From a virus: a stretch of 64,000 nucleotides of DNA. Shown piece by piece: positions 6,017-17,362 of the stretch. The stretch is from the IMG/VR virus record IMGVR_UViG_3300043446_002688; one strand, written 5' to 3'. Below the pieces are notes generated by a model. It saw only the letters and a list, made by a program, of their open reading frames with translations, ran no database searches and was not told the origin of the DNA. Positions within the stretch are counted from its first letter, which is position 1, and every line of letters begins with the position of its first letter. The position numbers were made by a program, and so were the translations under genes.

Positions 6017-6601
6017 ATGGAGATAAAAATTAATATTTTTTACTTATCACACGATCCTACTGAATGTGCTCGTTGGCACGTAGACAAACATGTAATTAAA
6101 CAAATTTTAGAATATGCTCAACTACTTTCTACCGCTCATCGGGTGCTTGATGGCACTCCTACTATTGATAGGGGAGGCGCAGCTGGCCGACAACGAACCA
6201 CGTATATACTCCCTGATAATCGTGATACTGTGCTTTATCGGGCTACTCACATCAACCATCCTTCAGCAATTTGGTGTCGCCAGTCTTATGCCAACTATGT
6301 CTGGCTATCTAAACTGTTGACCGAATTGTGTAAAGAATACACCTATCGTTATGGTAAAGTCCATAAAGTTGAACGTGATGGCCTTGAAGAAGAATTGATG
6401 TATACACCAATGAATATTCCTGCACATGCACCTTTTACAGAACCTACACCAGCAATGCCTGATGAGGTAAAAATCAAAGGCGATTCTATCAAATCATATC
6501 GGAATTACTATATAATGAATAAGCAACACTTGGCCTCTTGGTCAGGTAAAATTAATTCTCGTAAAGTACCGGAGTGGTTCGATGAAGCAGTTAGTGTGTG
6601 A
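6017..6601 (+). CDS. denV: Pyrimidine-dimer DNA glycosylase / endonuclease V family protein
   Basis: NIFYL..DP..CA..HVDKHVIKQILEYAQLLSTAH, YRATHINHPSAIW, YTYRYGKVH, PTPAMP, YRNYY. Confidence 0.75.
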   Translation: MEIKINIFYLSHDPTECARWHVDKHVIKQILEYAQLLSTAHRVLDGTPTIDRGGAAGRQRTTYILPDNRDTVLYRATHINHPSAIWCRQSYANYVWLSKLLTELCKEYTYRYGKVHKVERDGLEEELMYTPMNIPAHAPFTEPTPAMPDEVKIKGDSIKSYRNYYIMNKQHLASWSGKINSRKVPEWFDEAVSV

Positions 6602-6794
6602 TTTTTGTGACTCAGTAAGAATCGGTGTAAAAGTCGGTTACAAACAATTTAAGAAAAGTTTTCAAGAATGCCGTAAAGTGAGAAAGTACACTAAAGCAAA
6701 TTCTTTCAAAACTGATATGTTTGAGCCACAAGTAAATAAGAAAGTGCAAGAGGTTAGAGAACTTGCACAGAAAAATTACAGAGAACAAATCTAA
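6582..6794 (+). CDS. Small basic hypothetical protein
   Basis: 70-aa ORF, TAATG-coupled to the next gene. Confidence 0.5.
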   Translation: MKQLVCDFCDSVRIGVKVGYKQFKKSFQECRKVRKYTKANSFKTDMFEPQVNKKVQEVRELAQKNYREQI

Positions 6795-7069
6795 TGATTT
6801 ATACATTTCTTAATAAAAATACAAATGAGATTGAAGAACATACGATGCGTTTGTCTGAGTATGATAAATTCAAAGAAGATAACCCACACCTAGAGCGTTA
6901 TTTCTCCATAGAAGGTCTTGCAGGTCTTGGTGACGGACAGCGTATGTCCGTTCCAGGTATTGCACAACCACATGCTGCGTTTGAAACTGGTGTTATTCAA
7001 CGTATGCAAGAAACTATTCCAGGAAACACCATGTCTGGTCACAAAACAAAACGACCAAGAGAGTGGTAA
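6794..7069 (+). CDS. Conserved T4-like hypothetical protein (FmdB-like N-terminus without Cys)
   Basis: MIYTFLNKNTNEIEE...YDKFKEDNPHLER; sits just before phoH. Confidence 0.65.
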   Translation: MIYTFLNKNTNEIEEHTMRLSEYDKFKEDNPHLERYFSIEGLAGLGDGQRMSVPGIAQPHAAFETGVIQRMQETIPGNTMSGHKTKRPREW

Positions 7070-7212
7070 TGGCACAGATACCAGCATTATTTCTTCCAAA
7101 AAGGAGTGACAGTGATAAAAAAACCACCGTGAAGAAAGAAACCCCTAAAAAAAGACAATTCAAAAAGAAGGAAGAAAAGCAAACTAAAGCAGTTGCTATG
7201 TTATTATCATAG
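7069..7212 (+). CDS. Lys-rich 47-aa peptide (not in the ORF track)
   Basis: TAATG-coupled; MAQIPALFLPKRSDSDKKTTVKKETPKK...; stop overlaps the phoH SD. Confidence 0.5.
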   Translation: MAQIPALFLPKRSDSDKKTTVKKETPKKRQFKKKEEKQTKAVAMLLS

Positions 7213-7221
7213 GGAGTTTTA

Positions 7222-7986
7222 ATGGCGACAAAAAAACAGATTAGTAGAGAAGATGTTATTGAAGAACAAACTACTAAGACAAGACACCAAGCAGTAAGTA
7301 ATTCACTGAAAATAAAAATAAACGACTTAAAAACATTTGAGCCATTAACAGAAAATCAGAAGATATTTTTTGACGCCTACAAGCGTGGAGATTATTTCGT
7401 TGCACTTCACGGTGTGGCAGGTACGGGTAAAACCTTCTGTGCATTATACAAAGCATTAGAAGAAGTATTGGATAAATCAAATCCATTTAATAAGATTATT
7501 ATTGTCCGTTCAGCGGTACAGTCTCGTGAAATGGGACACTTGCCAGGTGATGTTGATGAAAAGATGGAAATCTATCAACAACCATATGTGCAAATCTGTC
7601 ACACATTATTTGACCGTAAAGATGCCTATGCACGATTGAATGAACAGGGTTATATTGAGTTTATCTCCACCTCATTCATTCGTGGTATGTCATTCGATGA
7701 TGCCATCATTATCGTGGATGAAATGCAAAACTTGACCTTTGAAGAAATTGACACAGTTATGACCCGTGTTGGTTATCGTTCAAAGATTATCTGGTGTGGT
7801 GATTATAGACAAACAGATTTGAATAAACGAAAGAATGATATGTCGGGCATTTTGAGGTTCTTTGATATTGCACACCATATGTCGGCATTTACACGAATTG
7901 AATTTACACCAGAAGATATTGTTAGAAGTAGTCTTGTGCGTGATTATATTTTAGCAAAAATGAATTATGAGGATTCACAAGATTAA
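7222..7986 (+). CDS. phoH: PhoH-family ATPase
   Basis: GVAGTGKT Walker A, VRSAV...GHLPG, FIRGMSF, IIIVDEMQN, IIWCGDYRQTDL, DIVRSSLV. Confidence 0.93.
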   Translation: MATKKQISREDVIEEQTTKTRHQAVSNSLKIKINDLKTFEPLTENQKIFFDAYKRGDYFVALHGVAGTGKTFCALYKALEEVLDKSNPFNKIIIVRSAVQSREMGHLPGDVDEKMEIYQQPYVQICHTLFDRKDAYARLNEQGYIEFISTSFIRGMSFDDAIIIVDEMQNLTFEEIDTVMTRVGYRSKIIWCGDYRQTDLNKRKNDMSGILRFFDIAHHMSAFTRIEFTPEDIVRSSLVRDYILAKMNYEDSQD

Positions 7987-8636
7987 TGTTTACATATTGC
8001 CCACCCAAAGAACTCGCTGACCTAATATCACAAACATTCCCTGACGGTAAACGATACTACACCACACCTGATGGTGTTAAGTTGCCGTCCGTGACTACGG
8101 TCATTGGTGCCAAGGGCAAACAGGCCATTTTAGAATGGCGCAAAAGAGTTGGTGAAGAAGAAGCAAACAAGATATCACGCAAGGCCACTTCACGTGGTAC
8201 TAATGTTCATACACTATGTGAACGATACTTGAACAACGAATCACTTGGTAATATCATGCCTGACGCCAAGGAGATGTTCCTGCCACTCAAACCATTACTG
8301 AATAGAATCAACAACATTCATTATCAGGAATGTGCGTTGTGGTCTCTCCAGTTAGGTATGGCAGGTCGTGTTGATTGTATTGCAGAGTTTGATGGTGTAT
8401 TATCTGTTATTGATTTTAAGACCTCACGCCGTCCTAAGAAGGCGGAAGACATTGATAATTACTTTGCCCAATGCGTTGCTTATGCCTGTATGTATGAAGA
8501 ATTGATTGGTGTTGGTATCGACCAAATCGTCATTATCATGGCCGTGGAAGGTTCGGAACCTCTACTTTTTATTGAAAAGACTGAGGATCACCTAAATACC
8601 TTGTTGGATTATATAAAATTTTACAAGGAAAATTAA
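7986..8636 (+). CDS. PD-(D/E)XK exonuclease (Cas4/RecB-like)
   Basis: LPSVTTVI, RGTNVHTLCE, AGRVDCIAE, VIDFKTS, YFAQCVAYA. Confidence 0.88.
   Translation: MFTYCPPKELADLISQTFPDGKRYYTTPDGVKLPSVTTVIGAKGKQAILEWRKRVGEEEANKISRKATSRGTNVHTLCERYLNNESLGNIMPDAKEMFLPLKPLLNRINNIHYQECALWSLQLGMAGRVDCIAEFDGVLSVIDFKTSRRPKKAEDIDNYFAQCVAYACMYEELIGVGIDQIVIIMAVEGSEPLLFIEKTEDHLNTLLDYIKFYKEN
8592..8598 (+). promoter_or_regulatory. Late-type promoter CTAAATA inside the exonuclease gene
   Basis: Same heptamer precedes structural genes elsewhere in the window; 38 nt before ATG 8637. Confidence 0.45.
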
Positions 8637-9599
8637 ATGGCTTTACCATCAAGTGGTGCTATAAGTTTTTATGATTTACAAAACGAATTCGGTGGTTCAA
8701 ATCCTATTGGAATAAACGAATACTACATGAATGGTGGTATTGTTCCTAACGGCACGATAAATGTAAACAACAACTCTTTACCAACTTCGGGTCAAATAAG
8801 TCTCAGTACTTTTTATGGATCTAAACAGATTCCCACATCTTTATCTGTTAGAGCATTGATAGTCGGTGGAGGCGGCGGTGGACATTCCCGTTATTCTGGT
8901 GATAATAACGCTATGAACGGTGGCGGCGGTGCTGGTGGCGTAGTTGATGCAACTTTTAATTTGCCTAAAGGATCATACACATTCATTATTGGTTCGGGTG
9001 GTTATCAAAGTAGTGGTGGAGATACTTTAGCTTTTGGATACACTGCTTATGGTGGTGGCATGGGTGGTGGATCTGATGGTCAACCAGGTTTTGATGGTGG
9101 TTCAGGAGGCGGCGGTGCCGGTACCAGAGGCGGTAATGCTGCATCAGGTAATTCAATACAACCAAATCCAACAAGTGGTGATTATGGCAATCAACCAGCT
9201 TATGGTAATGCTGGTGGTTATTATTCTGGTTCTGGTGGCGGTGCAGGTGGTGCAGGCTCAGGTATCAATGGCGGTCCAGGTAGACAATGGATAAACGGAA
9301 TATATTATGCTGGCGGCGGTGGTAATTCATATGGTGGTGCTGGCGGCATAGGTGGTGGTGGTACTGGACCAGGTCAAAACGCATTTTACTACGGCGGCGG
9401 AGGTAGTGGTGCTTCAAGTAGAAACGGCGGCCTAGATGCAACTTACGGTTATCAAGGTATCGTGATAGTTTCATATCAATGGGACTTCCAACTTATGTCG
9501 GGTGGTTCTGTCACATTTGTTAACGGCAGTGGAGGTCCAGGTGCTACATATAGATACTACCATACCTTCACATCAAGTTCGCAGTACCTTACTTTTTAA
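8637..9599 (+). CDS. Glycine-rich adhesin / tail-fibre tip-like protein
   Basis: N-terminus MALPSSGAISFYDLQNEFGGSNPIGINEYY; LIVGGGGGG...GGGGAGG...GSGG polyglycine loops; C-terminal GIVIVSY. Confidence 0.75.
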   Translation: MALPSSGAISFYDLQNEFGGSNPIGINEYYMNGGIVPNGTINVNNNSLPTSGQISLSTFYGSKQIPTSLSVRALIVGGGGGGHSRYSGDNNAMNGGGGAGGVVDATFNLPKGSYTFIIGSGGYQSSGGDTLAFGYTAYGGGMGGGSDGQPGFDGGSGGGGAGTRGGNAASGNSIQPNPTSGDYGNQPAYGNAGGYYSGSGGGAGGAGSGINGGPGRQWINGIYYAGGGGNSYGGAGGIGGGGTGPGQNAFYYGGGGSGASSRNGGLDATYGYQGIVIVSYQWDFQLMSGGSVTFVNGSGGPGATYRYYHTFTSSSQYLTF

Positions 9600-9615
9600 T
9601 TTTTAGGATTTTATA

Positions 9616-10176
9616 ATGTTAAATATAATTGATGATTTTGTTAAACCTCGTGTTCAAGATGAGATAGAAAAAATATTGACGGGAACAAATTTCCCCTATT
9701 TTTATAGTACTGAGTCTGTTCATTTAGATATCACCGATACTGTAATGCCAGATAGTAATGCTCTCGATGTGCCACAATTTTTTCATATGTTTGTTATAGA
9801 TGGAAAAATAAATTCACAACATTACAATGTAGTCTCACCAGTTACAAATAAACTAACTGAAACGCTTGATGAGGATTGTTATATACTCCGTTGTAAGGTT
9901 AATCTGAATACACTCGACACACGATTTGGTGACAGATACCATACACCACATATTGATAATGCTTTTGAAGAACAACTAACAGCAATCTATTATGTGAATG
10001 ACTCTGACGGCGATACCTATTTCTTTGATGAAAATGGAAAAGTTGCTCAGAGACTTACACCCAAAAAAGGACGATTGGTTTGGTGGAAGGGTAGAATCTT
10101 TCATGCAAAATCGTCACCCATTAAAACACCACAGAGACTTGTATTAAATATTAATATGTTGCCATTTAATCGTTGA
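9616..10176 (+). CDS. 2OG-Fe(II) dioxygenase
   Basis: HxD (HTPHID), TAIYYVNDSDGDTYFF, PKKGRLVWW, distal H (FHA) and R (RLVLNIN). Confidence 0.85.
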   Translation: MLNIIDDFVKPRVQDEIEKILTGTNFPYFYSTESVHLDITDTVMPDSNALDVPQFFHMFVIDGKINSQHYNVVSPVTNKLTETLDEDCYILRCKVNLNTLDTRFGDRYHTPHIDNAFEEQLTAIYYVNDSDGDTYFFDENGKVAQRLTPKKGRLVWWKGRIFHAKSSPIKTPQRLVLNINMLPFNR

Positions 10177-11078
10177 TTGATATGACGAATGAGAAATTGA
10201 TAATTATTGTACCTGATGACCATTATCACAAAAAACATAACTACACATTTCTTGTATATGATTTTGAAAATGGAAATTTAATACACAAAAGTCCATACAA
10301 TCCTGATTTAGATTGTAAAGAATTGGAAGGTCAAGGTAGACCAACTTTTAGACCTTATGGCATAACATATGATGATGATTACATATACATTGCCTCACAT
10401 AAAAAAATTGCAAAGTATGATAGAAAAACTTTTGAGTATTGTGGATTAGTTGGCATATCAATGTATATTAACACACATAGAATGTTAAAGAGTGGTGATG
10501 ACTTTTATGTGACACATACATCAGTCAATACAATTGGTGTCCATGGCAAAACAAACAAATATTTTAATGTCGTTTCTTTTGAATGGGTTGAAGCACCTGA
10601 ACATCCAGATGCAGCTGAGAGCCATGACATTACACACCTAAATTCTATAACAGAACATGAAGGAAAAATTTATTTTTGCCTAAACAATTTAAGTGTGAGG
10701 CCTTCAGAATTTGGTTATTTGAATAAAGCCACAGGTGAACACACAATGATTGGATCAGCTGGTGCTGGTTGCCATGATTTGCAAATTATAGACAATAAAC
10801 TATATTCATTATCAACTTCTACGGGTCATATTATTGAAATTGATTTGGCCACACGACAAACATCACAATATAAAGTTGTTAAAAAACTAAAAACATTCTT
10901 GCGTGGTATGGATGCATTAGACGGTAAAATAATTTTTATCGGTTCCAACCACTATTCACATGGTATTGTTGAAATGAATAATTGTTTCGTTGCCAGTTTT
11001 GATATATCAACAAAACAAACTAAACGACTATTCAATATCACTCATGCGGACACAGTTGCCTGTATGAAACTGGTATAA
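10173..11078 (+). CDS. Beta-propeller protein (DUF4915/TIGR03032-like)
   Basis: Blade motifs RPYGIT, THLNSI, GCHDLQ, FLRGM; start probably ATG near 10182. Confidence 0.55.
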   Translation: MIDMTNEKLIIIVPDDHYHKKHNYTFLVYDFENGNLIHKSPYNPDLDCKELEGQGRPTFRPYGITYDDDYIYIASHKKIAKYDRKTFEYCGLVGISMYINTHRMLKSGDDFYVTHTSVNTIGVHGKTNKYFNVVSFEWVEAPEHPDAAESHDITHLNSITEHEGKIYFCLNNLSVRPSEFGYLNKATGEHTMIGSAGAGCHDLQIIDNKLYSLSTSTGHIIEIDLATRQTSQYKVVKKLKTFLRGMDALDGKIIFIGSNHYSHGIVEMNNCFVASFDISTKQTKRLFNITHADTVACMKLV

Positions 11079-11091
11079 GTAAAATTTGGTG

Positions 11092-11120
11092 TTGCCAAAT
11101 TACAAAGAATGATATATAAT
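11092..11120 (+). promoter_or_regulatory. Sigma70-type promoter of the tmRNA gene
   Basis: TTGCCA 11092-11097, N17, TATAAT 11115-11120; predicted start near 11127. Confidence 0.85.
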
Positions 11121-11126
11121 CCTTAT

Positions 11127-11430
11127 ATGGTTGTATGAAGCAACTTGAAAAGTATTCTGGACGGGGGTTCGACTCCCCCCATCTCCACCAAAAACATTCT
11201 TCCACTCTAACGGGATAGGAGTTGGCCACCTTAAACGGTCGAAGTTTGTTTTTGATGGGGATGCCATGGTTTCGACAGGGTAAAGAGTATAGAAGTGGAC
11301 AACTTATCAGAGAAGATATAAAAACTAAATCAAAGTAAATGCAAATGACGAAAGTTACCGCATTGCTGCCTAATTGAGGCACTAGGGTTTTTGACAGTTT
11401 ATCCTCGTAACAGAATTAAACTGTCTTTTT
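11127..11430 (+). ncRNA. ssrA: Circularly permuted two-piece tmRNA: acceptor piece about 11127-11190, intervening segment 11191-11256, coding piece 11257-about 11430
   Basis: T-arm GGGGG-TTCGACT-CCCCC 11163-11179; CATCTCC-A-CCA 11180-11190 pairs with GGGGATG 11257-11263 giving G3-U70; P2 pairings AGGGTA/TATTCT and ACAAC/GTTGT; tag ORF 11341-11373 ANDESYRIAA*. Confidence 0.95.
11393..11430 (+). terminator. Hairpin plus U-tract ending the tmRNA coding piece
   Basis: GACAGTTTA / TAAACTGTC stem followed by TTTTT. Confidence 0.8.
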
Positions 11431-11805
11431 GGTGTGTTGATTGTTTGATGGTTTACCAAGTCTAGCAATTGACATTTTTTGTAAAGTTTCTTGTGAGTAA
11501 ATGTTTTTCTTGCCTTTGTTCCAAGGTTCAGTTCCAACTGGCCTGCCATTTTTGAGATTGTAGTATTTTTTACCAAACTCAGATTCTTTAATCATGCGAA
11601 GAAATCTAGCCTCTTCTTTTCTGGCTGTCTTCCTATCATTAAAGGTTTTGATTATTTTACGTTTGAAGTCGTTAGGTCTGTATTGGTGTTCTCCATTGAA
11701 CCAACGTGATGAAGATATATAACCATCGGTTATGTTTCCTTCATGCATACCAACATAGAACATTTTTCGGCATTTGTCGTACCAGATGTATAAAAAGTAT
11801 TGCAT
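11416..11805 (-). mobile_element. Free-standing GIY-YIG homing endonuclease (Seg-like) with NUMOD3-like tail
   Basis: Start ATG 11805 with GGAGGA SD; FLYIWYDKCRKMFYVGMH, GYISSS, FKRKII, E..FL, YYNLK, PWNKGKK, SQETLQKMS. Confidence 0.85.
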
Positions 11806-11834
11806 TATAATCCTCCAAGATATATAATGTATAT

Positions 11835-11907
11835 AGTAAACGCAAACTTTTAAGTTTGCATTTACAGGGTTTGCTCGTAGGTTTTCCCAGTAACAGAATA
11901 AGCCTAC
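11835..11907 (+). repeat. Diverged second copy of the tmRNA resume region and 3' hairpin
   Basis: AGTAAACGCAAAC vs AGTAAATGCAAAT; AGGGTTT in both; GTAACAGAAT at 11407-11416 and 11890-11899, each inside a different stem. Confidence 0.65.
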
Positions 11908-11934
11908 TACTATGTTTAACAACTAGGAGTTTTA

Positions 11935-12486
11935 ATGAAGAAAATCTTATTCGCAACTTTGGCCTCTTTGGCATTCGCCGCATCAGCAGCAGACTATGTT
12001 TCTGTTGATGTTGATAATGTATTGGGTCGTAACGGCGCAAAAGACAGCACAGCACAATATATCCGTGCTGGTAAAGAAATTGGTGGCATCCAGTATGGCC
12101 TACAAGGTCGTACCGCTACAATGAAAGACAACTCAGGTATTTTATCTAGTGTTGAAGTTACAGCAGCAAACAACAAATTCAATGTTGCAGGTGTAACACC
12201 ATTCGTTGGTGTTGGCCATGACAATGGATTCAATGGTGGTACTGCATATAACTATGGTCTTGTTGGTGCAACCTATGGATTGAAAGCAGGTCCAGGTTTC
12301 TTGTTGACTGGTGTTAAGACTCGTGTTGGTTCTACCGAACACGGCGCTCGCACTAAGCAAACAGTTGGTTTCGCTACATACAGCATTCCAGTTGCTAAGA
12401 ATGTTGCATTTAACTTGAACGCAAGCCGTTCTGGTCAAACCATCAAAGAGAACGCATTTGGCGTTGGTTTGGGTTTTAGTTTCTAA
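11935..12486 (+). CDS. Secreted outer-membrane beta-barrel (porin/OMP-like) protein
   Basis: Signal peptide MKKILFATLASLAFAASA; alternating amphipathic strands; C-terminal GVGLGFSF (BAM-type terminal Phe). Confidence 0.7.
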   Translation: MKKILFATLASLAFAASAADYVSVDVDNVLGRNGAKDSTAQYIRAGKEIGGIQYGLQGRTATMKDNSGILSSVEVTAANNKFNVAGVTPFVGVGHDNGFNGGTAYNYGLVGATYGLKAGPGFLLTGVKTRVGSTEHGARTKQTVGFATYSIPVAKNVAFNLNASRSGQTIKENAFGVGLGFSF

Positions 12487-12547: not shown

Positions 12548-12566
12548 CATCATAAAGGAGAAAAAA

Positions 12567-13046
12567 ATGAAGAAATTCATTCTAATAACTCTGTTTGCGA
12601 TGTTACCTGTAGTTTCACATCAGCAACCTTTATCAGAAACACAGGAAGTATCCATGGATATGGCCAAACAAATTCTATGCATGGCCAAGAATCTATATTA
12701 CGAAGCAGCCAAAGAACCATTTGAAGGTAAACTGGCAGTGGCACAAGTCACAATGAATCGTGCAAACAGTCCGCAATTCCCTAAAACCGTTTGTGAAGTT
12801 GTCTATCAAAAGACTAACAACACATACCAATTCAGTTGGGTCGGTGAAAAAGTGGGAAAAGTTACCAACGAGTATGCATGGCAAGAATGTATGATTGTAG
12901 CAAGGATGGCCTTGACAGAATACAAACTGCATGATACAATATACAGAACGAAAGCAATGTATTATCACAACACATCGGTGAACCCCGCATGGAAGTTGAA
13001 ATATGTTGCCAAGATTGGTAACCATTTATTTTACACACGAGCATAA
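12567..13046 (+). CDS. SleB-like cell-wall hydrolase (Hydrolase_2)
   Basis: Signal peptide; CMAKNLYYEA..EPFEGKLAVAQVTMNR...FPKTVCEVVYQ...QFSW; IGNHLFY. Confidence 0.92.
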   Translation: MKKFILITLFAMLPVVSHQQPLSETQEVSMDMAKQILCMAKNLYYEAAKEPFEGKLAVAQVTMNRANSPQFPKTVCEVVYQKTNNTYQFSWVGEKVGKVTNEYAWQECMIVARMALTEYKLHDTIYRTKAMYYHNTSVNPAWKLKYVAKIGNHLFYTRA

Positions 13047-13267
13047 TGCCTACAAAGAATGAAATTAGTGAATTTAGTGATTTGGTCAATAAGATAGCCG
13101 ATGAACATGGCATGACAAGGATGGATGCAATTATTCACCATTGCGAGCAAACTGGCATGGAAGTGGATGTTGCATCTACCCTCATATCTTCAGCACTTAA
13201 ATCTAAAATCCGTGAGGAAGCACAAGAGCTTAATCTACTAAAGAAAACAGCACGATTGCCTCTATGA
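13046..13267 (+). CDS. gp33: Late transcription co-activator gp33-like
   Basis: DAIIHHCE...VASTLISSALKSKIREEAQELNLLKKTARLPL; located upstream of gp59 and gp32. Confidence 0.75.
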   Translation: MPTKNEISEFSDLVNKIADEHGMTRMDAIIHHCEQTGMEVDVASTLISSALKSKIREEAQELNLLKKTARLPL

Positions 13268-13845
13268 TTGAATTGATGCAAGTGAAAACACCAGAACAAA
13301 AAGAACTGGTGAAGAATATTATTGAAAACAATCATTCATATGTACCTACGAATTCTTCCGTTGGCCGTAGAATAGATTGGTTGATATATCACCAAGAAGA
13401 AGATATGGTTCTGCCTGAATGTATTGGCATGATTGGCCTTGGTTCGTCTGTATATCCACCACCAAAGGATATACTGCGGCATCTTGGCATGTCTAAGCAA
13501 GAATATAAAGTGGCTTTCAATAGTATTGCCAACAACTGGCGTTTCTGTTTCAGTAAAAGAATCAAAAATGCTGGCACGCAAGTATTGAAACAACTTAGAC
13601 AGAAAGCACCAGGTGCATGGAAAGAAAAATATGGTGATGACCTTAGGTGTATAATCACCTTTGTGGGTGCAGGTAAAAACGGTGCAGTATATTTGGCCGA
13701 TAATTGGAAACAAATCGGTGAAACTGCTGGACTTCCTGCACACAAGTCATCTTCTATGAAATGGCACACAGGTGAAGAACTGAAAGAATTATTTGTTAAA
13801 CCAACAGGTGAAAACAAAAAGATAATTTTGATTAAGGATTTGTAA
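13264..13845 (+). CDS. Mom/DUF4338(DruA)-like putative GNAT-fold protein
   Basis: NNWRF...NAGTQVL...WKEKYGDDL...ITFVG...GAVYLADNWKQIGETAG resembles the GxxYxAxNWxxxGxTxG motif. Confidence 0.55.
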   Translation: MIELMQVKTPEQKELVKNIIENNHSYVPTNSSVGRRIDWLIYHQEEDMVLPECIGMIGLGSSVYPPPKDILRHLGMSKQEYKVAFNSIANNWRFCFSKRIKNAGTQVLKQLRQKAPGAWKEKYGDDLRCIITFVGAGKNGAVYLADNWKQIGETAGLPAHKSSSMKWHTGEELKELFVKPTGENKKIILIKDL

Positions 13846-13846
13846 T

Positions 13847-14467
13847 GTGATAACCGAAAACACGGGTTTCGCTTCTTTTGCTTTATACAATGCGATTAAA
13901 CTTCATTTTACTTCTGATAGTTACGATTTTTTTAAGTATGGTGGCAAAACCAACGTATCAAAGTCCAACTTTGCCGTTCGGAAGGACAAGTATTCATTCT
14001 ACAAACTATCCAGAAAATATAACCTACAGGATTTGAGGGATTATTATATTGCCAATTTCCTGGTAAAGAATGTTTCTTGGATTGGTGAGATTGCCAACGA
14101 AGAAGGTGAGTCCAATTACAAAGAATGGCAAAAAAGAAACCAGAGCTTGACATATCGGTTCAAAGAAGATATAATGTATATACTTGATGAAACAGATGGA
14201 AATCCAAATGAATCATTAAAGGTTGTAGACGGACAACATCCACAATTATTGCGATATGTGTGGGGCCACGATGTTAGTATTGAAACATTGGTGATACTGA
14301 ACAACATTCTAAATTTCTTACCAATGTGGGACAAAAAGATTACAGACACAATCGTTTGGCCCGAATGGAAAAGAAAGATTGATAGTTATAGTCCGTTTGT
14401 AAATTATGATAAGGACAAGTTTGTGTCCATTTTGAAAGAAAGTTTAAAAGACTATGCTGATAGATAA
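13847..14467 (+). CDS. gp59: Helicase loader gp59
   Basis: LYNAIKLHFTSDSYDFFKYGGKT...F..RKDKYSFYKLSRKY; IETLVIL. Confidence 0.9.
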   Translation: MITENTGFASFALYNAIKLHFTSDSYDFFKYGGKTNVSKSNFAVRKDKYSFYKLSRKYNLQDLRDYYIANFLVKNVSWIGEIANEEGESNYKEWQKRNQSLTYRFKEDIMYILDETDGNPNESLKVVDGQHPQLLRYVWGHDVSIETLVILNNILNFLPMWDKKITDTIVWPEWKRKIDSYSPFVNYDKDKFVSILKESLKDYADR

Positions 14468-14954
14468 AATCTATGTTGATATGGATGGAGTTCTATGTAA
14501 CTTTGAGAAACGATATACAGAACTATATGGCCATATTTCTGATGATGTTCGCCGTAGCACATTCAGGTCAAACTTTACAAACTTCATTGAGACTGACCAG
14601 TTTGCAACATTGGAAATTATGGAAGATGCTCGTTTCTTAATTGATGCACTAGACTTCTATGTTATGCCAAAAGAGATTCTATCATCTACCGCATACGAAG
14701 AAGTGTATGAAAGCATTTCAATGCAAAAGGCTCGTTGGCTTGCAACACACAACATTTCCTGGAAACAAAACTTTGTACCTGGAAAGAGGCACAAGTACAA
14801 ATGGGCAACACCAACTTCTGTGATTATTGATGATACACCAAGTGTTATTGATGATTGGAGAAAAGCAGGTGGGATTGGTATTCTTCACAAGAATACTGAA
14901 CAAACCTTGGCAGAGTTAAAATGCTGCCTAAATAAAGATATACATTATGCATAA
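14454..14954 (+). CDS. HAD-family 5'(3')-nucleotidase
   Basis: IYVDMDGVL motif I, ILSST, K..WL, IIDDT, W..AGGIGILH. Confidence 0.85.
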   Translation: MLIDKIYVDMDGVLCNFEKRYTELYGHISDDVRRSTFRSNFTNFIETDQFATLEIMEDARFLIDALDFYVMPKEILSSTAYEEVYESISMQKARWLATHNISWKQNFVPGKRHKYKWATPTSVIIDDTPSVIDDWRKAGGIGILHKNTEQTLAELKCCLNKDIHYA

Positions 14955-14961
14955 AGTGGAC

Positions 14962-14992
14962 AATCCGTTTATATTCCGTTATATTCCGTTTA
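14962..14992 (+). repeat. Three tandem about 10-nt repeats (ATATTCCGTT) in the gp32 leader
   Basis: aatccgttt, atattccgtt, atattccgtt just before the SD. Confidence 0.75.
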
Positions 14993-15011
14993 ATAAGAAA
15001 GAAGGTAAATT

Positions 15012-15896
15012 ATGGTAGATTTCGCCAAATTGAAAAAGAGTTCAGGCAATCTGGACAAACTCACTAAAGCCGTAGAAGCACTCAACGCTTCGTCAGACGG
15101 TAAATCCGACAAAGAGAACTATTGGAGACCAGAAGTAGATAAAGCCGGTAACGGTATGGCTACTATTCGTTTCTTGCCAGCTGCAGCAGTAGATGGTGAT
15201 GATGGTCTGCCTTGGGCAAAAATCTTTGAACATGGATTTCAGGGACCTGGTGGTTGGTTAATCGACAAATGTTTAACCACAAAAGGTCAACAATGTCCTG
15301 TTTGCGAACACAACAACAAATTGTGGAACTCAGGCATTGAAGCGAACAAAGATATTGTTCGTAAGCAAAAGCGTAAACTAAGTTACATCGCCAATGTGTA
15401 TATCGTATCTGATCCAAAGCATCCAGAAAACGAGGGCAAAGTTAAATTGTTCAAGTTCGGTGCCAAGATTTTTGAGAAGATTACAGAGGCAATGAACCCA
15501 CAGTTTGAAGATGAAACACCAATCAATCCATTTGATTTGTGGAAAGGTGCCAACTTCAAGTTGAAGATTACTAAAGTTGCTGGTTATCAGAACTATGACA
15601 AGTCTGAATTTATGTCACCATCAGCACTGTTGGATGACGATGATGAACTTGAAAAGATTTGGAAGTCTCAACACTCATTGTCAGTATTGACAGAGGACAA
15701 AGAATTCAAATCATATGATGACTTGAAGGCTCGTTTGGATAAAGTTTTGGGTGCAACAGAAATGCCTAAGACTACTGTTGAACAGGTTAAGGCTGCTGCA
15801 CCAAAAGCAAAAGTTGCTGCTGATGATGCACCTTGGGAACCAGATGTGTCTGAAGATGACGATATGGCATACTTCTCTAAGTTAGCCGAAGATTAA
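15012..15896 (+). CDS. gp32: Single-stranded DNA-binding protein gp32
   Basis: YWRPEVDKAGNGMATIRFLP, HGFQGPGGW, C..T.GQQCPVCE, LFKFGAKIF, NPFDLWKGANFKLKI, acidic tail YFSKLAED. Confidence 0.97.
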   Translation: MVDFAKLKKSSGNLDKLTKAVEALNASSDGKSDKENYWRPEVDKAGNGMATIRFLPAAAVDGDDGLPWAKIFEHGFQGPGGWLIDKCLTTKGQQCPVCEHNNKLWNSGIEANKDIVRKQKRKLSYIANVYIVSDPKHPENEGKVKLFKFGAKIFEKITEAMNPQFEDETPINPFDLWKGANFKLKITKVAGYQNYDKSEFMSPSALLDDDDELEKIWKSQHSLSVLTEDKEFKSYDDLKARLDKVLGATEMPKTTVEQVKAAAPKAKVAADDAPWEPDVSEDDDMAYFSKLAED

Positions 15897-15916
15897 ACTG
15901 TTGTCGTAAACCGTTT

Positions 15917-15941
15917 AACCCCGCCTAGTGCGGGGTTTTTT
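15917..15941 (+). terminator. Rho-independent terminator after gp32
   Basis: AACCCCGC-CTAGT-GCGGGGTT followed by a T-run. Confidence 0.9.
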
Positions 15942-15946
15942 ATTGG

Positions 15947-17362
15947 TTAAACAACTCTAGTCGAATCAAATATCATTCGTAAGAAAGAATCCTCTTGGTT
16001 TCTGACTGAAGGAATTTGTTTCTTAACTGGTGTAGTTTCTATCTTTTTGTTTACGTTTGTTTGTGTATTTTGTTCAGGTTGTGATTTGTTTAATTTGCCA
16101 ACACTTATTCTATTGTTTAAATTTTCATTAGCTGCAGCATTTAATCTAGAACCAACATTATCATTATTGCCAACTGGAACTCCAGTTGCTGTGGCATTTT
16201 GTCTTTGAAGTTTTGCATTTTCATTAGCATAATAAGTGTTTTCATCAATTTTTAATCCTGTAACAGGATCAAATTTTCCACCCCAGGTTCTGTCCCATTC
16301 CTCAGCACTTCTTAAATTTTTACCTTCAGATGTGTCTGGTCTAGGAACGACTTTAGTTATGGTTTCATTTTTGAATCTCATATCTTTTGGAATTTTTACA
16401 TTTTTTTGTTTTACAACCTTCTCTAAAAATTCCTTGCCGCCAGCCTGATTCATTTCCACTTCATCATTACGTTCCAATATTTCTGCGGCTCGAGCGGGAC
16501 CATTAATTATAATATCTTTTAACGCTTCTTCACCACCTAATTTAACAATATCACGTTCAGAAGCATTCTCTAAGGCCGCTGCAGCTTCTTCAGGACTAAT
16601 AACATTTCTGTTTGCAATTCTTTTTACACTCCAAGCCAATAGTTCAGCCAAACCTAAAATGGTTGCAACTGTCAACACGGCAGGATTCATTAAAACAAAT
16701 CTGAATAAACTGGAACCCAAAAATCTTAATAATGATCCAAACACCTTCATTCCACCGAAAATATCGGATATAATTTTTTTGAAATCGAAATTGGCCATAA
16801 AATTTTTCAACCAATCGGTTAAACTATCAAATCGGTTTCCTTTTCCAGATTTTTTAATTTTTCCACCAGAAAGAACTGTTAGTAATTCTTTGTGGCGTCT
16901 TTCTTCTTCCAGTTGGTGTTCTTCTTCTAAGTTTTTGGCCAGTTCAAGACGCTTCAAATTATCTTCATGTACACCAGATAATAAATTATGCATCTTTTTC
17001 AATGTTTCTGACAATCCAGACATCTCTTGTGTTTTATCAACAGGACCCAATTTAGTCAACTTATCACCAGTTTTTTCACGAATTGGTTTCAAACGACCTG
17101 TGAAATATTGAATGTCTTTTGCATCTCTACCCATCATGTGTCCCAATAGTGCAGGACCTAAGGATGAACCAAAGGTCAACATTTTTGCAATATTGAGAGG
17201 ATCAAATTTTTGTGTGATGCCTTTAACAGAAGCACGTGTTTTCAGGGAAATTGTTTTCTTAATTGCTGTACTAATCTTCTTTTCATACATCAATTGGTCA
17301 GCAAACAGGCTCATCAAGCCTGTATTTCTAATTCGTTTGGCTTGTTGGTATGTAATACTCAT
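15947..17362 (-). CDS. Tape-measure/baseplate-hub-like protein (gp29-like), second paralog
   Basis: Helical, with a hydrophobic central segment; follows the gp26/51-like locus. Confidence 0.55.
   Translation of the reverse strand: MSITYQQAKRIRNTGLMSLFADQLMYEKKISTAIKKTISLKTRASVKGITQKFDPLNIAKMLTFGSSLGPALLGHMMGRDAKDIQYFTGRLKPIREKTGDKLTKLGPVDKTQEMSGLSETLKKMHNLLSGVHEDNLKRLELAKNLEEEHQLEEERRHKELLTVLSGGKIKKSGKGNRFDSLTDWLKNFMANFDFKKIISDIFGGMKVFGSLLRFLGSSLFRFVLMNPAVLTVATILGLAELLAWSVKRIANRNVISPEEAAAALENASERDIVKLGGEEALKDIIINGPARAAEILERNDEVEMNQAGGKEFLEKVVKQKNVKIPKDMRFKNETITKVVPRPDTSEGKNLRSAEEWDRTWGGKFDPVTGLKIDENTYYANENAKLQRQNATATGVPVGNNDNVGSRLNAAANENLNNRISVGKLNKSQPEQNTQTNVNKKIETTPVKKQIPSVRNQEDSFLRMIFDSTRVV

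Follow-up and report, generated by a model that had tools for sequence, protein, structure and literature searches.

Why does a transfer-messenger RNA (tmRNA) gene of a phage have two 3' ends, with an endonuclease gene between them, and which of the two ends belongs to the genome in which they are found? The question is raised by a locus in IMG/VR record IMGVR_UViG_3300043446_002688, from which a stretch of 64 kb was analyzed (hereinafter, the window; all positions refer to it, and L-numbers denote the IMG/VR contigs or loci compared with it). The answer that we consider the most probable, at roughly 0.8, is that the 3' part of the two-piece tmRNA gene of a T4-like phage carries a mobile homing-endonuclease cassette of about 0.5 kb (roughly 11340–11865). 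Such a cassette would consist of four parts: a full replacement segment, from the resume codon through the open reading frame (ORF) of the tag to a terminal hairpin (hairpin A), with which the tmRNA stays whole; an antisense gene for a 129-aa GIY-YIG/NUMOD3 protein, the last codons and stop of which lie in the 3' arm of hairpin A; a short control region with a −10 element like that of the tmRNA promoter; and a shortened, palindromic fossil of the target, i.e., the resume motif with a truncated tag. The resident terminal hairpin (hairpin B), the spacer and the downstream gene would follow the cassette unchanged.

Two 3' Ends of One tmRNA Gene

The single RNA gene detected in the 64 kb is a permuted (two-piece) tmRNA, placed by ARAGORN at 11098–11464 (tmRNA*) with the tag ANDESYRIAA. 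The assignment is matched by the Rfam families RF04321 tmRNA_permuted (126 bits, cutoff 47) and RF01850 beta_tmRNA (115.6 bits, cutoff 84, over 11072–11440), and the locus has an acceptor piece with its CCA end ahead of the coding piece, a tag ORF and a tRNA-like domain. Two-piece tmRNAs are known in aquatic T4-like phages, e.g., Melnitz (PMC9004378). The gene itself (11098–11430, plus strand) runs from the acceptor piece through an intervening segment and the coding piece to hairpin A and a T-run, and it has a sigma-70-type promoter, TTGCCA-17-TATAAT (11092–11120, plus strand), with 11 of 12 consensus matches; the relatives have TTGACA-N17-TATAAT in this position. The resume-codon motif AGTAAATGCAAAT (11334–11346, plus strand), which lies inside AAAGTAAA and is the left mosaic junction in the comparisons with L103 and L087 described below, leads into the ORF of the ANDESYRIAA tag with its stop (11341–11373, plus strand; copy A, the replacement 3' segment). 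Hairpin A (11393–11425, plus strand) has a 9-bp stem, GACAGTTTA (11393–11401) and TAAACTGTC (11417–11425), the loop TCCTCGTAACAGAAT and a predicted fold energy of −10.9 kcal/mol, and the conserved 3' hairpin of the beta_tmRNA model is aligned to the same positions. Given that hairpin A is followed by TTTTT (11426–11430), tmRNA transcription probably ends there.

Beyond the endonuclease gene, the part of the tmRNA that extends from the resume codon to the terminal hairpin is present a second time, with the tag deleted, at 11835–11907. A preliminary description of the locus, made from the sequence alone, had pointed to a motif, the heptamer AGGGTTT and a hairpin with the same core but different stems, repeated here in the same order as in the tmRNA, and all these elements are indeed present. 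The resume motif AGTAAATGCAAAT and its counterpart AGTAAACGCAAAC (11835–11847) are the sole two matches to AGTAAAYGCAAAY in 64 kb, where 0.05 would be expected; GTAACAGAAT occurs at 11407 and 11890 only (0.27 expected), and AGGGTTT stands before both hairpins. The tag region of the second copy is shortened to GCA AAC TTT TAA and forms with the resume motif what we refer to as the fossil tag (11835–11865, plus strand), a 14-bp palindrome with arms at 11836–11849 and 11852–11865 (inverted repeat I9, 93% complementary). It is followed by AGGGTTT (11866–11872) and the displaced hairpin B (together 11866–11907, plus strand), with the stem GTAGGTTT (11877–11884) and AAGCCTAC (11900–11907) and the loop TCCCAGTAACAGAAT.

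Eighteen copies of the terminal hairpin were collected from the window and from contigs related to it; their 15-nt loop TCCTCGTAACAGAAT hardly varies, and their stems, of 6–10 bp, come in at least 14 different sequences, all of them fully complementary in a per-sequence stem search. RNAalifold predicted no structure for the alignment of these hairpins because MAFFT had placed the stems out of register; the per-sequence search showed the covariation. Given the near-invariant loop and the varied, complementary stems, the two hairpins of the window are homologous structured elements that have evolved under selection, and represent neither a chance likeness nor a recent sloppy duplication.

An Empty Site in Endonuclease-Free Relatives

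The gene downstream of the second end encodes a porin-like outer-membrane protein of 183 aa (11935–12486, plus strand), and a search with this protein identified 29 homologous IMG/VR loci on large phage contigs of up to 374 kb. In many of these the porin gene is adjoined by a permuted tmRNA, and in none of the 29 is the endonuclease present. The tmRNAs of L002, L008, L015 and L020 have the tags ANDEKFALAA or ANDERFALAA and one hairpin directly before the porin ribosome-binding site. The comparison proposed in the preliminary description, namely whether endonuclease-free tmRNAs end in a hairpin of the 11866–11907 type directly before the next gene, was made, and a single hairpin of this type is found in that position in L002, L008, L015, L020, L089/L095, L097–L099, L101, L102 and L103. 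Furthermore, a search with hairpin B itself shows that it is the sole tmRNA end in the endonuclease-free L089/L095, L097, L098/L099 and L101, and that it is also located to the right of the endonuclease in L049/L100 (97% identical in L049). Endonuclease-free relatives with both hairpins, which would speak against an insertion, were looked for as well, and none was found among the endonuclease-free loci compared.

The closest endonuclease-free relative is L103, a 176-kb contig that is 90–92% identical to the window at 6029–8623 and 12566–15985. The coding piece of its tmRNA equals that of the window, with one difference, up to AAAGTAAA and then diverges: after the resume motif, L103 has the naive tag CGCAAACGATGAAAAGTTCGCATTGGCAGCCTAA, then AGGGTTTCGG, one hairpin and the same spacer TATGTTTAACAACTAGGAGTTTTAATGAAGAAA, and it matches the window again from AGTAAACGCAAAC/AGGGTTT through the spacer. 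In the window this spacer comprises 27 nt with the ribosome-binding site (11908–11934, plus strand), arranged as after the single tmRNA end of the endonuclease-free relatives, and its sequence TATGTTTAACAACTAGGAGTTTTAATG is common to the window, L103 and L020. The identity between L103 and the window is 89% over 11883–11946 and 77% over the tmRNA up to end A, and hairpin B is 93–97% identical to the single ends of L089 and L049. Thus, the displaced end, with the relic start AGTAAACGCAAAC and the spacer of L103, is nearer to the single end of the relatives than the inserted end is. L103 is an empty site, in which the left part of the window, up to the resume motif, is joined to the right part, from AGTAAACGCAAAC/AGGGTTT onward. 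The endonuclease is present in the window and absent at the same tmRNA site in L103 (~91% identical flanks) and L002 (~82%).

These comparisons also bear on a different origin of the two ends, namely a local tandem duplication of the tmRNA 3' end, the copies of which drifted apart before the endonuclease was inserted between them. Two collinear copies in one genome are what such a duplication would produce, but the stems of the copies differ and are internally compensated, and each copy has closer counterparts among the ends of other tmRNAs than in its partner. In addition, two ends were seen only together with the endonuclease, and none of the endonuclease-free relatives compared has two tmRNA ends; we regard this origin as very improbable. 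Both chance similarity and tandem duplication in situ were rejected on the comparative evidence.

A Cassette Shared by Unrelated Backbones

Out of the whole 64 kb of the window, L087 shares only 11126–11865. The identity to L087 rises from ~70% to ~90% at 11330, i.e., at the resume codon, and falls after 11869, so that the steps are located at ~11330 and ~11866, and the match ends at 11865, which is the end of the fossil tag and its palindrome. In L087/L035 the endonuclease is 90% identical to that of the window, hairpin A is identical and the tag region is 96% identical, with only ~70% identity in the tmRNA body, and nothing else in the 8.9 kb of L087/L035 matches the 64-kb window. Hairpin A is 100% identical in L035, L042 and L058. 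The shared unit spans ~0.5 kb, with the endonuclease as its only ORF, and encodes no tyrosine integrase as judged from the ORF list, Pfam and PHROGs, which agrees with the earlier suggestion of a homing system devoid of an integrase.

Homologs of the endonuclease were found by protein search in 57 IMG/VR loci and, in a large protein collection, in 176 protein clusters, none of which is functionally named by its source. At least 41 of the 45 loci with a 53–91% identical homolog have a permuted tmRNA (ARAGORN or Rfam) on the opposite strand that abuts or overlaps the 3' end of the ORF, and the remaining loci are truncated or contain a split tmRNA. The tags of these tmRNAs are diverse, with ANDERFLMAA, AANDSRFALAA, ANDNVWALAA, ANDSDYRLAA, ANEESFLMAA, ANDSVYSLAA and ANDEKFLMAA. 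Homologs of lower similarity (≤44% identity) occur in cultured rhizobiophages, where they stand alone between structural genes, are annotated as homing endonucleases and are not located at a tmRNA; the tmRNA association therefore defines a subfamily of these endonucleases. A separate observation concerns L064 (3477–4169; also L065, L067 and L068), where the tmRNA on the endonuclease side consists of two sub-threshold pieces ~240 nt apart and looks interrupted or degenerate.

The Fossil Tag Travels with the Endonuclease

The upstream sequence is readable in 15 distinct close cassettes (≥70% identity); the fossil tag is present in every one of these, and the second terminal hairpin in 14. Among the loci with ≥53% identity, too, each one in which the sequence upstream of the endonuclease start can be read has a fossil tag. 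In every close cassette, the endonuclease start is followed by ATCCTCC, GAT(A/G)TATAATGTAT(A/T)TAG and AGTAAAxGCAAAC-TTT(C/T)AAG-xxxGCATTTAC, and then by (T)AGGGTTT(CGG) and a terminal hairpin with a stem that varies by locus. The fossils of this group share a deletion of 17–18 nt. The distant cassettes L061, L063, L070 and L073 contain a longer fossil that includes the 3' half of the tag and the stop; in L061 it reads GCAAAC-ATTTCA-GTTCGCATTGGCAGCCTAAACGCTGAC-TAGGG and continues into an L008-type hairpin, with only GATGAAAA of the naive tag altered. The fossil is therefore a former resident tag that now travels with the endonuclease. The piece 11835–11865 belongs to the cassette, and hairpin B with the spacer to the backbone (or to a co-converted tract). 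The preliminary description had proposed that a cassette invaded the 3' end of ssrA, supplied a replacement end and left the old one as a relic; the invasion and the replacement are borne out by the empty site in L103 and the cassette shared with L087, and so is the relic as far as hairpin B and the spacer are concerned, but not for 11835–11865, which is conserved with the endonuclease.

As part of the mobile unit, the fossil tag may be functional. Just ahead of it lies ATATATAAT (11820–11828, plus strand), a −10-like element of the same form as the −10 of the tmRNA promoter (11112–11120), which occurs in the window only in these two places, is kept as GAT(A/G)TATAATGT in the cassettes and is a candidate for an outward cassette promoter. 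It could accordingly be argued that 11820–11907 is primarily a functional RNA or regulatory module, either a promoter with a 5' hairpin leader or a small RNA antisense to the resume site, in which the likeness to the tmRNA end is selected and is not that of a relic. Apart from the −10-like element, this possibility draws on the palindrome, which is kept, with a double compensating change in L042 (GCAAATGCG / CGCATTTGC) and a different perfect 9-bp palindrome, AATGCGTGA / TCACGCATT followed by GCATTAGTAGCCTAA, in L064 and L069; on an 11-nt exact complement to 11335–11345 (inverted repeat I20); and on the endonuclease-free relatives, in which the stretch from the hairpin to the ribosome-binding site provides the downstream gene with no promoter. 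However, the −35 is poor and a consensus scan did not call a plus-strand promoter at ATATATAAT, the palindrome is mismatched in many cassettes, and the element is never seen without the endonuclease. Furthermore, a regulatory role is compatible with a mobile cassette and does not exclude it. A primarily regulatory module is, in our view, improbable.

The Predicted Endonuclease

The endonuclease gene occupies 11805–11416 on the minus strand, with the ATG at 11805, the coding part at 11805–11419 and the stop at 11418–11416. The stop and the last five codons overlap the loop edge, the 3' arm and the T-run of hairpin A, and the placement of the stop within the tmRNA terminal hairpin, claimed previously, is thus correct. 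A Shine-Dalgarno sequence, GGAGGAT on the minus strand (11810–11816), is conserved in the cassettes. No endonuclease promoter was found: the window shows no enrichment of TATAAATA or CTAAATA, and the consensus promoter scan gave only a minus-strand hit, the −10 of which overlaps the start codon. A late-promoter-like ATAAATA is present upstream of the more distant cassettes L061, L063 and L070 and is absent from the window. With tblastn, no second copy of the endonuclease was detected in the window, and none in the 29 porin-linked loci.

The protein belongs to phrog_314, "homing endonuclease" (2e-11), and contains N-terminal GIY/YIG motifs, about 10 residues apart (YIW, residues 6–8; YVG, residues 17–19); its match to Pfam NUMOD3 (0.02) is below the cutoff. 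Among 15 family members, Pfam GIY-YIG is found in 10 at E ≤0.1 (best 2.2e-5), NUMOD3 in 9 (best 1.9e-4) and SegE_GIY-YIG in 3, and Y6, Y17, G19, R43, E65 and N83 are invariant in all 15. The last three are candidates for the catalytic Arg, Glu and Asn and may correspond to R27, E75 and N90 of I-TevI. For the AlphaFold (AF2) model (pLDDT 77.6), the top match in the Protein Data Bank (PDB) by Foldseek is the I-TevI catalytic domain (1LN0/1MK0; E 0.2, probability 0.85). VIA-align superimposes 81 and 83 residues on 1LN0 and 1MK0 with Z of 5.7 and 5.2, i.e., below 8, and rmsd of 3.8 and 3.7, respectively, and the next fold matches are PD-T4-3 and the GIY-YIG domain of UvrC. The window protein was accepted, with the reservation of the modest Z, as a short GIY-YIG/NUMOD3 protein and a predicted homing nuclease.

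Which End is Native

Alternatively, end A could be native: the endonuclease would then have landed after the tmRNA as a free-standing, Seg-like insertion, bringing with it the downstream partial copy (the fossil tag and perhaps hairpin B) as a homology arm or an operator. Under this scenario, conservation of the fossil tag with the endonuclease across backbones would be natural, and so would the different types of hairpin A that flank near-identical endonucleases and the ANDESYRIAA tags that are joined to type-1-like hairpins in endonuclease-free phages. In addition, hairpin B and the spacer are 97% identical between the window and L049, with porin genes that are only ~65% identical in the same comparison. 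The evidence against it comes from the junctions. Up to the resume codon, a single difference separates the tmRNA body of the window from that of L103, after which the sequence changes abruptly; L002 and the near-isogenic L103 each have one end, with which hairpin B and the spacer are collinear; the match to L087 stops at 11865, short of hairpin B; and the fossil of L061 runs seamlessly into a native end of the L008 type. A native end A is, in our view, unlikely.

Several observations nevertheless weigh against the mobile cassette with a replacement end, or at least against its simplest form. The conservation of the fossil tag with the cassette across backbones makes "the old end of this genome" too simple a description of the second copy. 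The replacement end is not strictly co-inherited with the endonuclease, given that near-identical endonucleases stand beside four types of hairpin A, and copy A is not unique to the cassette, ANDESYRIAA with a similar hairpin being present in the endonuclease-free L088 and L096 as well. At the protein level, the match of the window endonuclease to Pfam GIY-YIG (PF01541; 15.3 bits, E 0.026) is below the 22.6-bit cutoff, the fold match, at Z 5.7, is modest, and a family sequence profile compared with the PDB found no GIY-YIG structure or relative, so that the link to I-TevI comes from fold comparison only. The cut site is deduced only from the mosaic boundaries, and cleavage itself is predicted. 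Finally, the genomes yielded no pair of >95% identity in which only one member has the cassette. When such pairs were sought through the identity of their tmRNA bodies, the best value was 80% because the intervening segment is hypervariable; a search for closer relatives with the upstream 301-aa protein and two exact-pattern scans of the metagenome collection yielded nothing; and a DNA search of the cultured-phage collection produced short tmRNA matches only and no close relative.

Proposed Mechanism and Variation of the Tag

Taking the mobile cassette as the working model, we propose that the enzyme acts in mixed infections, cutting the naive tmRNA alleles within the tag ORF or next to it, and that the break is repaired from the carrier genome, so that the cassette is copied in and the tag is replaced. 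Homology for the repair would come, on the left, from the tmRNA body as far as the resume motif and, on the right, from AGGGTTT with the terminal hairpin; the two bracket the naive tag of ~45 nt exactly. The naive core TTCGCATTGGCnGC is found only in endonuclease-free alleles. The functional tags beside the endonuclease end in FLMAA, YRIAA or an FALAA written TTCGCTCTAGCAGCT, all of which differ from the naive tag at the nucleotide level, and in the fossils the core is truncated or altered. Given that both tag-like sequences of the cassette thus differ from the naive tag, the carrier would be immune.

Were copy A, and not the fossil, to pair with the right end of the break, only the tag would be converted, which could explain the identical ANDESYRIAA in endonuclease-free tmRNAs that have very different bodies and native hairpins. 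All 30 nt of this tag are the same in 10 IMG/VR contigs, the tmRNA bodies of which differ greatly, and in L089 the ANDESYRIAA tag joins hairpin B at AGGGTTT. This pervasive mosaicism blurs the distinction between "foreign" and "native," and the two terms are relative.

With regard to the downstream gene, the endonuclease-free relatives have no promoter between the hairpin and its ribosome-binding site. Together with the unique, conserved downstream copy of ATATATAAT, this suggests that the cassette element, its poor −35 notwithstanding, may restore transcription of the downstream gene, with a start at the palindrome. Alternatively or additionally, the fossil could serve as a homing-site-like operator, as described for I-TevI (PMC2988022).

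As an observation in its own right, the endonuclease-free tags of L097, L098/L099, L089 and L020 make up a series of compensated single-base indels (ANDEKFALAA, ANDEKFRIAA, ANDESYALAA and ANDESYRIAA), which is unusual for a 10-codon ORF.

A further, tentative possibility, which we consider rather doubtful as a whole, is an arms race between the endonuclease and the tmRNA that diversifies the proteolysis tag and the terminal hairpin, with the fossil tag kept as a homing-site-like operator or as a 5' leader controlling the endonuclease or the downstream gene. The patterns that can be cited for it are the tags EKFALAA, EKFRIAA, ESYALAA and ESYRIAA, connected by compensated indels, and the recoded FALAA; resistant tags would spread into endonuclease-free genomes through partial gene conversion.

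Comparison with Known Systems

A close analogy is found in fungal mitochondria, where mobile ORFs (mORFs; atp6 of Allomyces macrogynus, and atp6, atp9, cox2 and nad3 of Glomus) consist of an inserted C-terminus, with the native C-terminus left downstream (PMC3630166). The order is the same as in the window, i.e., gene core, inserted foreign 3' end, endonuclease ORF (GIY-YIG in Glomus atp9) and displaced native 3' end; in both cases, the displaced end resembles the single end of the relatives, the inserted end is divergent and an integrase is lacking. However, the mORFs reside in mitochondrial protein genes, and the host gene in the window is a phage RNA gene, that of tmRNA; the endonuclease lies antisense and shares sequence with the replacement hairpin, in contrast to the in-frame fusion of the mORFs; and the displaced copy contains a palindrome, the product of an internal deletion linked to the cassette.

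Free-standing GIY-YIG enzymes of the Seg group are typical of T4-like phages, and SegB of T4 targets a tRNA gene region (PMC2330249, PMC2988022). Similar to segB, the window endonuclease is a small free-standing GIY-YIG gene beside stable RNA genes in a T4-like phage, and, as with the Seg enzymes, it would be expected to spread in mixed infections, through the repair of double-strand breaks in which flanking markers are co-converted. The differences are that the window protein comprises 129 aa compared to about 200–250 aa in the Seg enzymes and I-TevI, that its activity is predicted, that the target would be a tmRNA, and that the cassette duplicates part of the target gene. For I-TevI, an operator is also described, in which a sequence resembling the homing site overlies the promoter of the endonuclease gene itself (PMC2988022); the degenerate target copy directly upstream of the endonuclease ORF in the window is comparable, as a candidate operator.

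In bacterial chromosomes, integrase-borne genomic islands and prophages target tmRNA genes and regenerate the 3' end (PMC4383910, PMC11915505), and these share with the cassette the entry into the 3' part of ssrA, the replacement 3' end and the displaced fragment downstream. The cassette differs in the lack of an integrase, the size of 0.5 kb with one ORF, the lytic-type phage host and the mechanism, which would be homing by break repair as opposed to site-specific recombination. Homing endonucleases with ssrA as their home are also known: group I introns in tmRNA genes carry LAGLIDADG endonuclease genes (PMC11915505). Those genes, however, are located in a self-splicing T-loop intron of standard bacterial tmRNAs, whereas the tmRNA of the window is intron-free and keeps its function by means of a duplicated gene end, and the enzyme family differs. 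Full-text literature searches for tmRNA together with homing endonuclease or GIY-YIG revealed no report of the arrangement described here.

The cassette defines a family of predicted homing endonucleases dedicated to two-piece tmRNA genes of phages and abundant in aquatic metagenomes. If the proposed mechanism is correct, the "bring your own gene end" strategy of fungal mitochondria would extend, in T4-like phages, to a structured RNA gene and would need neither an intron nor an integrase there. The mechanism would also account for mosaic tmRNA genes, which calls for caution when phage ssrA phylogeny is used for host inference, as for Melnitz (PMC9004378), and would offer an example from nature of a selfish element with a possible influence on a degradation tag. 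The compact, 129-aa predicted nuclease, with its conserved, predictable target, is directly testable.

Neighboring Genes and Other Observations

Although it matches no Pfam or PHROG family, the porin-like protein is conserved in 29 or more phage contigs, in most cases next to the tmRNA. The gene (the segment 11935–12566 of the window) is present or absent between close relatives: in L103, the tmRNA spacer leads straight into a cell-wall hydrolase gene. The same spacer and the start ATGAAGAAA precede the porin gene in the window and the hydrolase gene in L103, and within the window the starts of the porin and hydrolase genes form a 28-nt direct repeat (D1), which suggests that the porin gene might be a gene cassette exchanged at the start codon. 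Upstream of the tmRNA, the window contains ~2.5 kb (8624–11090) that are extra relative to L103 and L002, with genes for a 320-aa Gly-rich protein, a 186-aa protein and a 301-aa DUF4915/Kelch-like protein; in L103 and L002, the tmRNA directly follows the homolog of window position ~8623.

In L005 (4590–5078), a related phage tmRNA encodes a much longer tag, ANANTKGEVVINGRGVKIAGLGSAVLA, and is located downstream, not upstream, of the porin gene. Finally, ARAGORN identified a tRNA with the anticodon CTA, of the amber-suppressor type (labeled tRNA-Pyl), in L003, L007, L009, L012, L017 and L019, 0.4–3.7 kb downstream of the porin homolog in these six contigs, and none in the window; this tRNA might indicate read-through or recoding of TAG in some of the related phages.

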